A DNA stretch of 64,000 nt from a virus, in the IMG/VR virus record IMGVR_UViG_3300003690_003155, positions 1-64,000 of that record; one strand, written 5' to 3'. The notes under the pieces are model-generated. The model saw only the letters and a list, made by a program, of their open reading frames with translations, searched no databases and was not told the origin of the DNA. How positions within the stretch are numbered: position 1 is the first letter of the stretch; each line of letters starts with the position of its first letter. Shown here piece by piece: positions 8,181 to 14,670 of this stretch. Both the position numbers and the translations under genes were made by a program.

Positions 8181-8624
8181 GTGAGTGAGATAGATAAGAC
8201 GATAAAGGCAGATTTGACAGGGATAGCTCAGCTCGAGCTGAACGTGCCAACTCTGGAGACGCGCGGAAATGATAGCTTAGATTTCCATGATTGTTCGGTG
8301 CGGAGTATCGAGCGAGCGCTCGAACGTGCATATGAGCTTGGCCGTGAGGCTAATCGCGAATGGGGCATTCAGCTCGGTATTGAGATGGGCTTGAAGCGCG
8401 CCATGGATATTACTTCTAGGGATTTGCATAATTTCAAATTCCCGGAGGGTCAGATTCCGATCGATATGCCGCTCGAGCAGTACGCGCCGAAGGATGATTC
8501 GACATTTGAATTCTCGTACAAGACGTACGAAGAGCGCACGCTGGAGAAGGATGTTGCTGCGCGCAATGTGAGGCGTCGCCGTGCTAATCGCATGGTATCA
8601 AAGAATCGCAGAAATCGGAAATAA
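8181..8624 (+). CDS. DUF6900-like domain protein with basic C-terminal tail
   Basis: TLETRGNDSLDFHDCSVRSIERALERAYELG motif. Confidence 0.65.
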   Translation: MSEIDKTIKADLTGIAQLELNVPTLETRGNDSLDFHDCSVRSIERALERAYELGREANREWGIQLGIEMGLKRAMDITSRDLHNFKFPEGQIPIDMPLEQYAPKDDSTFEFSYKTYEERTLEKDVAARNVRRRRANRMVSKNRRNRK

Positions 8625-8900: not shown

Positions 8901-9050
8901 ATGAACGCTGATTGCGAACAGAAGATGACGGAGAAAGAAACTGATAATCTCAGAGCGTGGAAGCGTTGGGGGTTGCAGATGAAGCTATTGAAGAGTATTC
9001 ACAGAGAGATCGCGCCTAAGAAGCAATTTTTACACAATGCCCTTAACTAA
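8901..9050 (+). CDS. 49-aa hypothetical protein (not in ORF track)
   Basis: MNADCEQKMTEKETDNLRAWKRWGLQMKLLKSIHREIAPKKQFLHNALN*, directly after the promoter. Confidence 0.55.
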   Translation: MNADCEQKMTEKETDNLRAWKRWGLQMKLLKSIHREIAPKKQFLHNALN

Positions 9051-9108
9051 AGAAGAATTTATACCGCATGGTTTAAGCAGATTTGCTACCACCCCTAAAA
9101 AAAAGATT

Positions 9109-9576
9109 ATGAGTACGAATAGTAAGAAGAACCCCGCCCCAGTGCTGGCATGTGTCATTACTGGACAATCGCGGAAGACATCACACAACTACTTGAACGA
9201 TAAGGCCAAGCGCCTTGGAGTTGCGAGCGATTGGTTGCTTAACAATTATGTTAGCAAGTTTGTTTGTAGTCAGCTGCGCGCTGGTAAAGCGCTTAGTGAC
9301 CTGCAAACGACAGATCTTAAGATCACAGATCAGTTATTGACTGATATGGTTAGGAAGAACTCCAAGAGCCGCATAACAAATTTCTGGTTCAAGAATGGGG
9401 TTTATCAGACATCCAAGCCAACACCCAAGAAGGTTGCGAAGACGAATCCAAAAGTCAACGTTGACGATCTCACCGCAAAGGTGAAGGAAGAGCAAGCTGA
9501 GGCTGCAACGGTCCCGGCACCTGTGAAGGAAGCTACCTTTGATGAGGTGTTGGATGAGCTTACACAGCTAAGCTAA
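9109..9576 (+). CDS. hypothetical protein
   Basis: ORF; ATG 9109 after an A-rich leader preferred over 9037. Confidence 0.65.
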   Translation: MSTNSKKNPAPVLACVITGQSRKTSHNYLNDKAKRLGVASDWLLNNYVSKFVCSQLRAGKALSDLQTTDLKITDQLLTDMVRKNSKSRITNFWFKNGVYQTSKPTPKKVAKTNPKVNVDDLTAKVKEEQAEAATVPAPVKEATFDEVLDELTQLS

Positions 9577-9593
9577 CCCACGACACAACAACG

Positions 9594-9628
9594 AGAGGTG
9601 AGGATCCATGCGGTTCTCACCTCTTTGT
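9594..9628 (+). terminator. hairpin terminator
   Basis: agaggtgagga...ttctcacctct followed by ttgt. Confidence 0.6.
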
Positions 9629-9634
9629 ATGCGT

Positions 9635-9705
9635 AAAGTAAAGTGAAAGTAAAGTGAAAGTAAAGTGAAATAACTGTTGACTTTTTCCGTATCTGGAGCT
9701 ATAAT
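9635..9705 (+). promoter_or_regulatory. near-consensus sigma70 promoter with three upstream 11-bp repeats
   Basis: (AAAGTAAAGTG)x3 at 9635-9667; TTGACT(9677)-17 nt-TATAAT(9700). Confidence 0.8.
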
Positions 9706-9772
9706 ATATATTCTGTTTTAGTAAAAGACAGATTAAAAAGTGAAAAATAGTAATAATAATAAAAATAATAAT

Positions 9773-9961
9773 ATGATTAAGATATTAGATAAGAATGGAT
9801 TGGAGATTGAAGTTGGTCAAATTGTTAAGATTAAAGGTAATGATGTTGAAGATTGTGTAGTGTGTGGGTTTGATAATGGTAGAGTAGATGTTATAGAGTT
9901 AGGTGAAGGGTTTGTTATAGATGGTAAAGAGATAGAAGTTGTTAGTGAATTGAATGGTTAA
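9773..9961 (+). CDS. cytosine-depleted small protein, predicted SH3-like beta barrel
   Basis: ATG after taataaaaataataat; only one C in the gene; no Ala, Pro, Thr or His. Confidence 0.7.
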   Translation: MIKILDKNGLEIEVGQIVKIKGNDVEDCVVCGFDNGRVDVIELGEGFVIDGKEIEVVSELNG

Positions 9962-9974
9962 TAAAAATAATAAT

Positions 9975-10319
9975 ATGAAAAAGATAATTAAAGATAGTAT
10001 GAGAGATAGTAATAAGAATTATATATTAGTTTGGTTAGGTGTTGATAATGGTAAGAGTGAAGTTATAAAAGGTGATTTAGATTTATGGATTGGAGGTACT
10101 GAAGTTATAGAAGGGAGTAATAAAGTATGGATGGGTGAAGAGTATATGGTTGTAGAAGTAGAGGTGAGTATGTTAGGTAAAAAGGTAGAGGTGTTAGATG
10201 ATGAAGGTAAGGTTATAGAAGATGGTATATGTATAGGTGTTGATGAGGATGAAGTATTGTTATATGATAGAGGTGAAGGGTTTAGTTGTGATATAAAGAA
10301 TAGTAGAGTAGTTTGGTAG
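9975..10319 (+). CDS. cytosine-depleted two-domain small protein
   Basis: same taataaaaataataat leader; only one C in the gene; no Ala, Pro, His or Gln. Confidence 0.7.
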   Translation: MKKIIKDSMRDSNKNYILVWLGVDNGKSEVIKGDLDLWIGGTEVIEGSNKVWMGEEYMVVEVEVSMLGKKVEVLDDEGKVIEDGICIGVDEDEVLLYDRGEGFSCDIKNSRVVW

Positions 10320-10338
10320 TATAAAAGAAAGATATAAT

Positions 10339-10497
10339 ATGAATAAGAAATATAAAATAGTATATAAGAGTGAGTATACTTTTACTGAAGAGGAAGTAAA
10401 AGGATTAGATAATATAGATAATGTTATACAAGAATGTATTGATCAAGATAGTAGTGAACATTCTGATAAGTCTAATTGGGAGGTAGTAGAAGTATAG
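10339..10497 (+). CDS. 52-aa C-poor acidic protein (not in ORF track)
   Basis: MNKKYKIVYKSEYTFTEEEVKGLDNIDNVIQECIDQDSSEHSDKSNWEVVEV*. Confidence 0.6.
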   Translation: MNKKYKIVYKSEYTFTEEEVKGLDNIDNVIQECIDQDSSEHSDKSNWEVVEV

Positions 10498-10511
10498 TAT
10501 AACTTTTATAT

Positions 10512-10560
10512 AGAGTAGGTGAGGCTATATAGACATCCTATATAGTCTCTCTTCCTCTCT
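10512..10560 (+). terminator. long hairpin closing the C-less operon
   Basis: gaggctatatag-acatc-ctatatagtctc stem, extended by agagtagg/cctctct. Confidence 0.55.
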
Positions 10561-10680
10561 ATAGTACTTAAGTACGAGAATCCGGATTATATAGAGGTTT
10601 CATGGACCCCGGTTCTGAGGGCATGCAAAACTTTTTTTCGCGAATTTTTTTTCATTAGAATTATAAGATAAATATTGTAT

Positions 10681-11535
10681 ATGGATTGGACACCTGGAGA
10701 TTCGAATCACCCTTTAATGGAGAAAAGGAAATTACGAAAATTATTAGGATTTGAACATAAACATGGTCCTCATATTCCCGATGACGATATACAAGCAATC
10801 ATCAACAATCAGCATCACCAATCCCATCGTGCATTATTAACGCCGGATCCGGGAGGTGGATGGTCTATCCAAAAAGTATATTTTAATAAGCGTATTAATA
10901 CGATGGATAGGCGTAGATTCGAAAACGAAATAAGAATGTTAACTGAATTAGAGGAGAATTTTACAAATACACCTAAACTCGATTATTATCCATTTCCAAA
11001 GATATTATCAATTGATCATAAAAAATGTTTAACGACGATGACTTACTGTGGTCCTTGTTTAAATAAAACACATGGCTCAGAAGCAGCACACAATTGGGCA
11101 AAAGACAAGCCGAATACTATAGTTAACGAAGTAAATGATATAATAGAATGTATTATTAATAATTTAACAAATAATTTAATTATATATTCCGACATACATC
11201 CTGGAAATATATGTATTAATAATAATAATCTATTCTTAATTGATTTTGACAGTGCTTATTTCTTAAGAAAATCATCACCAGAAGCTACAAGAGAATTTTA
11301 TTCTGATTTTTACGACAAAAAACACATTATGTTAAATGATAGAAACCGTAAAATATCTGTAGAGTCCATGGCTATCTTAATTAATAAACTTGACAGTAAT
11401 GAAGATGTAAATAATGGAACCTGGAGACCGGTTAACTGTTCACATCATAAAGCTCCTAAGCCATTAAAAGCCGGAGCCAACATATGGCATATATTAACTA
11501 TGTTAGAATTGCCAATCTCTCCAGAGACATTATAA
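10681..11535 (+). CDS. protein kinase-like fold protein (RIO/Kdo/APH type)
   Basis: FENEIRML helix, catalytic DIHPGN, IDFD; ATG 10681 lies 6 nt after TAAATA. Confidence 0.7.
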   Translation: MDWTPGDSNHPLMEKRKLRKLLGFEHKHGPHIPDDDIQAIINNQHHQSHRALLTPDPGGGWSIQKVYFNKRINTMDRRRFENEIRMLTELEENFTNTPKLDYYPFPKILSIDHKKCLTTMTYCGPCLNKTHGSEAAHNWAKDKPNTIVNEVNDIIECIINNLTNNLIIYSDIHPGNICINNNNLFLIDFDSAYFLRKSSPEATREFYSDFYDKKHIMLNDRNRKISVESMAILINKLDSNEDVNNGTWRPVNCSHHKAPKPLKAGANIWHILTMLELPISPETL

Positions 11536-13638: not shown

Positions 13639-14670
13639 ATGAGAATTAACGATAGGAACGTAGCCTTACAGGACATAAACGAACATTCGGCCATTGCGGT
13701 TGAGGGTGTTCAGAACATATCGAAGAAGTCTGATCTTTATGATAAATTGGGATTAGATTTTGAGGTAGAAGCGGTAAATCTCGGGTCACTGACCGGAGAT
13801 GATAGTTATGATAGGTTTTACGGATTGCGTAATAATAAATCCGGAAACGTATATACAGTTGTTGGTCGTAAGTACACACCAATTCAGAATCATGAGCTCA
13901 TTGATACATTCGATGAAGTTCGCGAAATGTACGGTGGTAAATACAAAGCGGCCGGCGTGATGCGCGGGGGTAGTCGTATTTGGGTTCAGGCAGAGCTTCC
14001 TAAGAAGTATTCGTTTGATATTCCTAATCGGAAAGGTGATACAATTAATTCTATAATCACTATGTTGATCGGTCATGATGGAATTATTTCCAATTGTATT
14101 TTCCCGACATCGAGCCGAGTTGCATGTAACAATCAGTTTGTTGCAATGACTCGTGAATCTACTCGGGAATATCGAATTCAGCATTATTCGAATTATTCGG
14201 ATAGGCTAGATATTGTTAAGTCTGTTTTTGCTAAGAACATTAATAGTCTTAAGGACATGTATAAAGGGTTTGCTAATCTTGATAGTCAGGCGATGTCTAA
14301 GACTGAGCTCTATAATTTCTTGAGCGAGGTGTATCCAATGAAGGATGAGGATGACGAGCGGACAGTTGGTCTGCACAATGATGTAGCTGCCTTGTTTAGC
14401 CGGGGTGCTGGTAACCTTGGGAAGTCCCGTTGGGATGCATTTAATGCAGTGACTGAGTTTGTTGATCATCATCAACATGCGACTCGGATGGCTAATGCCA
14501 TTGAGAATAAAAATTATACTTATATCCAGAATCGGATTGGTAGTTTGAGTACTCCAGGTGGTTCGATGGACCGGTTTAAGCGCCGGGCGTTGAATTTATT
14601 GGTTGAGGGAGATTTTAGAACCGTCTCTCCAGTCCGCGCCAAGAACACTGAAATTACACTTACCGTCTAA
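13639..14670 (+). CDS. DUF932/DUF945 phage-plasmid family protein
   Basis: VGRKYTPIQN, GGSRIWV, GHDG, RVACNN and WDAFNAVTEFVDH motifs. Confidence 0.85.
   Translation: MRINDRNVALQDINEHSAIAVEGVQNISKKSDLYDKLGLDFEVEAVNLGSLTGDDSYDRFYGLRNNKSGNVYTVVGRKYTPIQNHELIDTFDEVREMYGGKYKAAGVMRGGSRIWVQAELPKKYSFDIPNRKGDTINSIITMLIGHDGIISNCIFPTSSRVACNNQFVAMTRESTREYRIQHYSNYSDRLDIVKSVFAKNINSLKDMYKGFANLDSQAMSKTELYNFLSEVYPMKDEDDERTVGLHNDVAALFSRGAGNLGKSRWDAFNAVTEFVDHHQHATRMANAIENKNYTYIQNRIGSLSTPGGSMDRFKRRALNLLVEGDFRTVSPVRAKNTEITLTV

Follow-up and report, generated by a model that had tools for sequence, protein, structure and literature searches.

A swappable gene cassette without cytosine in an uncultivated deep-sea T4-type myovirus

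The DNA analysed here (the window) comprises the first 64,000 nucleotides (nt) of the IMG/VR virus record IMGVR_UViG_3300003690_003155, a contig of 122,091 bp that is 61% complete by CheckV. The record carries a T4-type tail sheath, and the cultured phages that match it best are Pelagibacter phage Mosig, Flavobacterium phage immuto, cyanophages and KVP40 (35-38% identity, about one third of the protein). We describe a small multi-gene unit of this genome (Table 1) in which an A-tract repeat, a promoter and a 5′ hairpin precede the small acidic genes, two to five in number, and a conserved hairpin of 17 bp follows them, and whose message-sense strand is nearly devoid of cytosine (C). We hold with high confidence that it is a swappable cassette of early genes belonging to an uncultivated T4-type myovirus of the deep sea, and that its transcribed (message-sense) strand is held free of C by purifying selection. 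The strand that is copied is thereby free of guanine (G).

Table 1. Features of the C-poor cassette and its borders, in window coordinates
Feature	Position	Strand	Details
Stem-loop closing the upstream gene (9037-9576)	9593..9625	+	just 5′ of the cassette promoter
A-tract repeat AAAGTAAAGTG	9633..9670	+	11-bp unit, 3.3 copies, abutting the -35 box; Tandem Repeats Finder, 100% matches
Sigma-70-like promoter TTGACT-17-TATAAT	9677..9705	+	11/12 consensus matches
5′-terminal hairpin of the message	9712..9732	+	putative, from reading of the sequence; holds the sole two C near the 5′ end (9713, 9729)
Gene B (ORF1)	9773..9961	+	62 aa, acidic, pI 4.2; 1 C in 189 nt; in every cassette examined
Gene C (ORF2)	9975..10319	+	114 aa, acidic, pI 4.4; 1 C in 345 nt
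Gene E (ORF3)	10339..10497	+	52 aa, acidic; relaxed constraint, 7 C in 159 nt, TCT for Ser
Closing stem-loop	10513..10560	+	C-poor 5′ arm pairs with pyrimidine-rich 3′ arm
Conserved non-coding module 3′ of the closing hairpin	10561..10640	+	alignment A5

The plus strand between 9730 and 10378 holds A 261, C 2, G 179 and T 207 in 649 nt, and a recount agreed exactly with the initial annotation of this DNA, which had reported two C, at 9818 and 10099. The C-free runs inside the stretch measure 280, 279 and 88 nt, while outside it the longest C-free run measures 54 nt in the window and 58 nt in the genome as a whole. Against a genome background of 15.8% C, two or fewer C in 649 nt have a binomial P of 2.5e-45. 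When the whole record was scanned, a base with five or fewer copies per 200 nt was found only at 9689-10462, so that the genome has no second C-free stretch. The content of C in the coding strand is 0.3% here as compared with 10.1% in the next-lowest of the 134 open reading frames (ORFs) of at least 100 aa. The neighbours were likewise as first described, since the adjacent units with equally good promoters (8867 and 11509) have an ordinary 13-21% C.

The stretch, whole or in part, is present in contigs of 20 public runs from 16 studies, labelled as marine and hydrothermal-vent metagenomes, and this gives it the independent support that the annotation had called for. A separately assembled contig of 2,211 nt (run X1) spans 9486-11535 and differs by one letter. 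An assembly artefact is therefore excluded; the C-poor cassette is real and is kept by selection. Among the listed holders no RNA run appears. Run X20, guessed to be RNA, has a single contig of 444 nt on 9868-10296 which may be DNA and was not counted as expression.

The three ORFs are intact and their products are all acidic (pI 4.2-4.4). In ORF1 and ORF2 together Ala, Pro and His are absent, Gln and Thr occur once each, Ser is encoded only by AGT, Arg only by AGA and Leu only by TTA or TTG, which is precisely the avoidance at the amino-acid and codon level described at first for these two genes. Pyrimidine-ending codon sites have T in 82 of 82 cases; the genome uses C at 16-25% of such sites, and under its own codon usage T at all 82 has a probability of about 10^-8.4. 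C is the only base which a translatable gene can spare, because a start codon requires G, while A and T are indispensable to ATG and to every stop codon. The giving up of five amino acids implies unusually strong selection on the message rather than on the proteins.

Related metagenome contigs were fetched for 11 loci and a C-poor block was found in all 11 (176-1,087 nt with 3-7 C, the shortest being cut by contig ends), so homologous loci do stay C-less. The loci are syntenic, with a common upstream gene, stem-loop, repeat, promoter, closing hairpin and kinase-like downstream gene. The cargo differs: the window and ten loci have the sets A-B-C-D-E, B-C-D-E, A-B-C-D, B-C-E and B-C. Gene A (129 aa), which is absent from the window, lacks C throughout its 390 nt in L001 and L006, and the unbroken C-free runs of these two loci reach 946 and 947 nt, respectively. 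The number of C per gene rises towards the 3′ end, being 0, 0, 0, 3 and 10 for genes A to E of L001, 1, 1 and 7 in the window, and 0-1 and 0 in the two-gene cassettes. The homologues of gene E in L001, L002, L007, L008 and L010 have 7-17 C.

The near-consensus promoter, the identical leaders on the first two genes and the closing hairpin that had been noticed from the letters alone were all recovered. Both promoter hexamers are invariant across eight aligned loci, and the term "early operon" stands as far as the type of promoter goes, this being the sole basis for "early". The A-tract repeat upstream is kept in eight loci with variable copy number and is probably an UP-like or curved element. 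The 19-nt leader TAATAAAAATAATAATATG stands before the ATG of the first two genes in identical copies (9757 and 9959) and nowhere else in the genome; it is A/U-rich and without a Shine-Dalgarno (GGAGG-like) element. In place of the 5′ hairpin of the window, L003 and L005 have TTTGCAA..TTGCAAA and L001 has TTGAAAT..ATTTCAA, with 1-2 C each, and L004, L007 and L011 have a short leader without hairpin. The closing stem has 17 pairs predicted by RNAalifold and is kept in eight loci; compensatory changes were found at two of its pairs and at a third pair in a downstream hairpin (alignment A6, three in all). The stem-loop upstream varies on both arms between loci, GAGAGGTGAGG/CTCACCTCT in some and GAGGGGCGAGG/CTCGCCCCT in others (alignment A4). 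The module downstream of the closing hairpin, which is better conserved than the adjoining genes, contains GTACTTAAGTAC (a perfect palindrome of 12 bp), another hairpin, and a T-run preceded by GGGCATGCAAAA; a search of Rfam returned no family below E 0.28.

Contigs from public runs also point to exchange of the cargo. One contig of run X1 joins 9961 to 10345 (gene B to gene E, side 30) and is hence without ORF2, and a contig of run X3 likewise joins gene B to gene E, at 9963. Variants that have lost ORF2 are thus in circulation, with the repeated A/U leader as a possible point of exchange. Joints which skip the whole cassette were found as well (9587 to 10555, side 41; 9515 and 9581 to 10566, sides 26-29) and hint at cassette-free relatives, though at 85% likeness they may stem from other organisms. 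Close relatives were absent from 50,697 phage records searched by blastn and tblastn, and from IMG/VR scans done with ORF2, the kinase-like gene, P0015 and P0065. A scan of genome contigs with ORF1 gave nine loci that were rejected as chance matches; they are short (20-43 residues in seven) and give no host clue. In two of them, L019 and L021, the match is the motif VICGFDNGRV within a beta-propeller-like protein of 393-428 aa from a Gammaproteobacteria metagenome-assembled genome, a protein which by its sequence could be labelled BamB-like.

The nearest described counterpart is given by the PeSL cassettes of the T4-type phages RB49 and phi1, as presented in passages of Arbiol et al. 2010 (PMC2839356). 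Both systems have a strong sigma-70-like early promoter with an AT-rich upstream stretch, a stem-loop, and small genes of no known function that are exchanged as modules between close relatives. PeSL genes, however, carry a Shine-Dalgarno element, which the leaders here are without, and in those passages their base composition is ordinary with no mention of a missing base. The stem-loops of the present cassette stand at the ends of the unit and not inside the promoter as in PeSL. The two are likened by architecture; as in PeSL, the border stem-loops may act as terminator or attenuator of the cassette.

The substitutions between loci are informative about the constraint. C occurs in 2 of 45 variable columns of gene B and the C-terminal part of gene C, while in two genes that flank the cassette in these loci it occurs in 162 of 329 (Fisher p = 8e-10). 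The variable columns of the cassette include T/A, T/G and A/G, and none is C/T, a type that ranks second in the flanks. G, T and A have all gained from what C lost, G standing at 31% here and at 16-30% in the neighbours, and the coding strand is 65-68% purine. Leaders and spacers are likewise C-free, so the constraint acts on the nucleic acid and not on codons, and unrelated cassette genes have the same C-lessness. The view of the initial annotation that selection acts on the nucleic acid itself is thus borne out by all 11 loci, by the columns and by the spacers. Highly transcribed non-template strands do lose C by deamination, and one could suppose a composition without function, left by strand-specific deamination or hypermutation, by a recent transfer or by faulty assembly. 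This is extremely unlikely: the C-avoiding substitutions, the gain of G and A besides T, the lack of any C/T column and the intact ORFs exclude plain deamination or hypermutation, the block is carried by 11 independent contigs and 16 studies, and the restricted alphabet is still kept by proteins of about 50% identity.

That persistence is seen in the homologues of the cassette proteins. Gene A has 349 homologues in all, and among the 120 listed at 70% identity or more, 114 are without Ala, Pro, His, Gln and Thr altogether; over the 120 together, 22 of 15,794 residues depend on C, 16 of them in two chimeric-looking rows. ORF1 has 11 homologues among 1.84 billion representatives, and those at about 50% identity (P0065, P0066 and P0071) still have none of the five residues. 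P0065 (215 aa) joins an unrelated N-terminal part to the ORF1 domain and uses the five nowhere, so the three-letter rule reaches other cargo at that distance. The more distant P0067, P0068 and P0070 use Ala, Pro, Thr and Gln freely, hence the restricted alphabet is not imposed by the fold of ORF1. Among marine metagenome proteins 46 are homologues of ORF2, mostly versions of 64-71 aa in which its C-terminal half occurs by itself; all those examined are without the five residues.

What makes C so costly may be a hazard to elongation of the transcript at each C, arising from scarcity of cytidine triphosphate (CTP) or from a chain-terminating CTP analogue; this is the explanation we favour, and only tentatively. 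Every C in the message would be a separate hazard for its completion, as RNA polymerase would stall or stop at C when CTP is scarce or when ddhCTP is made by prokaryotic viperins. A message without C would be completed regardless, and its products would be made when those of ordinary genes are not. Because such a hazard would multiply along the transcript, amino acids needing C would be given up and the rule would be strictest in the promoter-proximal genes and relaxed in the last. Conversely, the surrender of five amino acids speaks for a price on each individual C, and the 5′-to-3′ gradient for a price that adds up as the transcript grows. Threshold effects such as the loading of Rho explain the loss of five amino acids less well than a per-site hazard does, and the fact that only this unit is affected supports the per-site hazard also.

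Several points weigh against it. The rest of the phage genes cannot be expressed without CTP, and the shortage would therefore have to be relieved by the cassette products. Genes D and E are always last, which makes position and gene identity inseparable and confounds the polarity, and two C are kept in the hairpin at the extreme 5′ end, where the hazard would cost most. Prokaryotic viperins are rare and reportedly hit phage-encoded polymerases most, and the promoter of the cassette would be read by the host polymerase. Finally, a G-directed hazard on the template strand fits the same data equally well.

It is also possible, with still more doubt, that three-letter messages are a general and undescribed viral strategy, in which small first-wave proteins are written so that their transcript can do without CTP and their template contains no G, synthesis is immune to ddhCTP, to withdrawal of pyrimidines and to G-directed damage, and the cassette proteins are the matching inhibitors. 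Literature searches, to which supplementary tables did not belong, found no description of natural C-free phage genes or of genes without one base. If the strategy is true, the cassettes would supply new anti-defence genes, and composition would suffice to find them. Should the C-lessness stem from a defence at the nucleotide level or from a property of modified DNA, it would reveal a new layer of the phage-host arms race, and base composition by itself could serve to search uncultivated viruses for first-wave genes of host takeover or anti-defence.

The hazard on the template strand ranks close behind the per-site hazard at C, and in its specific form is rather doubtful. It supposes that a 7-deazaguanine derivative replaces G in the phage DNA, and that a copied strand without the modified base, or without the target of a host enzyme directed at G or at modified G, leaves the first genes readable by a naive host polymerase. 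Polymerase is blocked by lesions of the template strand and not by those of the other strand, and the record encodes QueC (E 1.4e-59, 197 bits) and GTP cyclohydrolase I, FolE (E 7.5e-49, 162 bits), which both speak for this idea. On the other side, the promoter and the 5′ hairpin keep template G, and the flanking early units, whose 13-21% C is template G, are read from the same DNA. The DpdA-family DNA transglycosylase is the signature protein of phage 7-deazaguanine DNA modification according to an excerpt of PMC10516641, and no DpdA/TGT was found in the 61%-complete record by matching to Pfam TGT, phiST DpdA3 or immuto DpdA; tblastn with phiST DpdA3 also did not reach immuto and the Campylobacter phages.

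Eight genomes were scanned for C-poor windows (five or fewer C per 200 nt). The same excerpt reports three phages with G fully replaced, Flavobacterium phage immuto_2-6A (in which dG is replaced by fdPreQ1), phiST and CP220 (PMC10516641). Immuto_2-6A (NC_055915.1, 160,410 bp) has exactly one C-poor window, at 68218-68725 (L026 18218-18725), which favours the G-free template. None was found in phiST, CP220, KVP40, Mosig, Melnitz or S-T4, so only one of the three fully G-replaced phages has such a unit, and KVP40 has QueC without one. C-poor units thus occur in two of five genomes with deazaguanine genes and in none of three without, a difference which is not significant; the deazaguanine link is neither required nor excluded. 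This C-poor window of immuto covers gp143, which encodes an acidic protein of 118 aa and has 5 C in its 357 nt; a TATCTTTAG-type motif lies on one side of it and a GC hairpin on the other, and the small neighbour genes have 8-33% C. Like the cassette genes, gp143 is a small acidic early-region gene, alone in its C-poverty, in a T4-type aquatic phage with deazaguanine genes; it differs in being less strict (1.4% C), a single gene for an unrelated protein and in a Bacteroidetes-type promoter context. No published comment on its C-poverty was found by literature searches. Immuto_2-6A is available in culture and allows a direct test of the question.

Rho loads on unstructured, C-rich and G-poor RNA, and a C-free, strongly transcribed and poorly ribosome-covered message could escape premature termination by it, the G-free antisense RNA being an ideal target of Rho. 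Between 9646 and 10490, C does not exceed G in any stretch of 78 nt. The first such stretch with C>G after the cassette lies directly 3′ of the last gene, in the region of the closing stem-loop (bubble 10490-10625); YC dinucleotides number 0-0.5 per 100 nt as against 4.7-8.4 in the neighbouring genes. The leaders without Shine-Dalgarno element agree with this explanation, and so would the predicted likeness of the ORF2 barrel to the KOW domains of Spt5 and NusG, at a generic level only (Z 6.0-7.5). Excerpts of two papers point the same way: avoidance of Rho under runaway transcription drives purine bias (Dierksheide et al. 2026, PMC13323073), and regions free of C>G were refractory to Rho in 28 of 32 templates (Nadiras et al. 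2018, PMC6144790). The published bias shares with the cassette a purine-rich coding strand free of C>G stretches, and in the cassette a pyrimidine-rich stretch follows immediately. As described there, however, the bias is graded and genome-wide, whereas here 0.3% C and the surrender of five amino acids are confined to one unit, a composition that is extreme beyond the published bias. Evasion of Rho is unlikely as the driver: G>C already suffices (excerpt of PMC6144790), which leaves the giving up of five amino acids for zero C unexplained, E. coli NusG lets Rho act at C-poor sites (excerpt of PMC7819879), and the neighbouring early genes are full of C>G bubbles.

Other consequences of the missing base were counted in the cassette (649 nt) and in 1,395 nt of flank. 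Palindromes containing G or C number 0 of 6 bp and 1 of 4 bp (GTAC), versus 20 and 39 in the flank, and the motifs ACA, TAC and GCT number 0, 1 and 0 versus 36, 17 and 17. The escape from palindromic restriction sites and the loss of ACA (MazF) sites that the initial annotation had listed among the possible grounds of selection are therefore true as consequences, without being shown as its cause. Most sequence-specific toxin RNases (MazF, PemK, ChpB and MqsR types) recognise motifs with C, and a message free of C would survive them and could deliver an antidote, a generic solution that suits a phage meeting many different toxins. Messages that resist MazF because they lack ACA, and synthetic transcription cassettes without C or without G, concern a single motif or were built in the laboratory. 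In these too a missing motif or base escapes an RNase or spares one nucleotide triphosphate, but here a natural unit of several genes is without a whole base and is kept so by selection. Evasion of RNases is quite unlikely to be the reason, as it predicts no 5′-to-3′ gradient, avoidance of motifs would not need the removal of every C, and A- or U-specific RNases are not evaded (AAAT occurs six times in the cassette).

The near-unstructured message foreseen by the annotation fared in the same manner, true as a consequence and not shown as a cause. Mean minimum free energy is -10.1 kcal/mol per 150 nt versus -30.6 in flanking plus-strand genes, and with A/U-rich leaders that have no Shine-Dalgarno element an RNA left open by the lack of G-C pairs might have its starts found efficiently, possibly in the cold deep sea. 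Yet dinucleotide shuffles of the message show no more structure than it does (mean z +0.2), and other windows of the genome reach -8.9 although they contain C, so that avoidance of structure alone is a poor driver; moreover G is raised to 31% and not lowered, and neighbouring genes cope with ordinary structure. We regard this explanation as very unlikely. The idea of an R-loop or origin was set aside, the cassette having only five GGG runs, no G4 motif and a variable gene content.

The proteins give few hints of their function. Pfam and PHROGs gave sub-threshold matches only, profile searches against PDB sequences nothing below E 0.2, and the ESM Atlas no usable match; the products are small and acidic with no family match, and the proposal that they are first-wave anti-defence proteins found no support. 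The model of ORF1 (pLDDT 87.8) had no credible match among PDB structures by Foldseek, the best being a CsrA entry at E 0.48. The model of ORF2 has a pLDDT of 67.9 overall and about 90 in the C-terminal half, where residues 64-114 are predicted to form a small SH3/KOW/Tudor-like barrel. By VIA-align this barrel matches the KOW of Spt5 with a best Z of 7.5 (49 residues aligned at rmsd 2.5), a value of the generic range, and the KOW of NusG with Z 6.0-6.1, values below 8 being common among unrelated small barrels. Two ORF2-like proteins of 66-69 aa, P0013 and P0017, are named "glycine cleavage system aminomethyltransferase T" by one source; with Pfam GCV_T at only E 0.1, the name looks like over-annotation of a small barrel.

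Of two paralogies considered within the genome, that of ORF1 with ORF 50583 was not supported (BLASTP E 1.2), and ORF2 shares with ORF 2112 only a short segment (E 5e-4 over 35 residues). An exact identity of 20 nt (2574-2593 and 10134-10153, encoding GEEYMVV) joins the C-less ORF2 with ORF 2112, which is otherwise of ordinary base composition, and may be a trace of recombination or a shared motif.

The region is flanked by a DUF6900 protein (8181-8624, E 3.4e-19) and a DUF932 protein (13639-14670, E 1.4e-32), and gp159 of immuto is a DUF932 protein too. The gene downstream of the cassette (10675-11535) is ABC1/protein-kinase-like (Pfam ABC1 E 1.3e-6) and conserved in seven loci, and TAAATA stands a few bases 5′ of its start codon.

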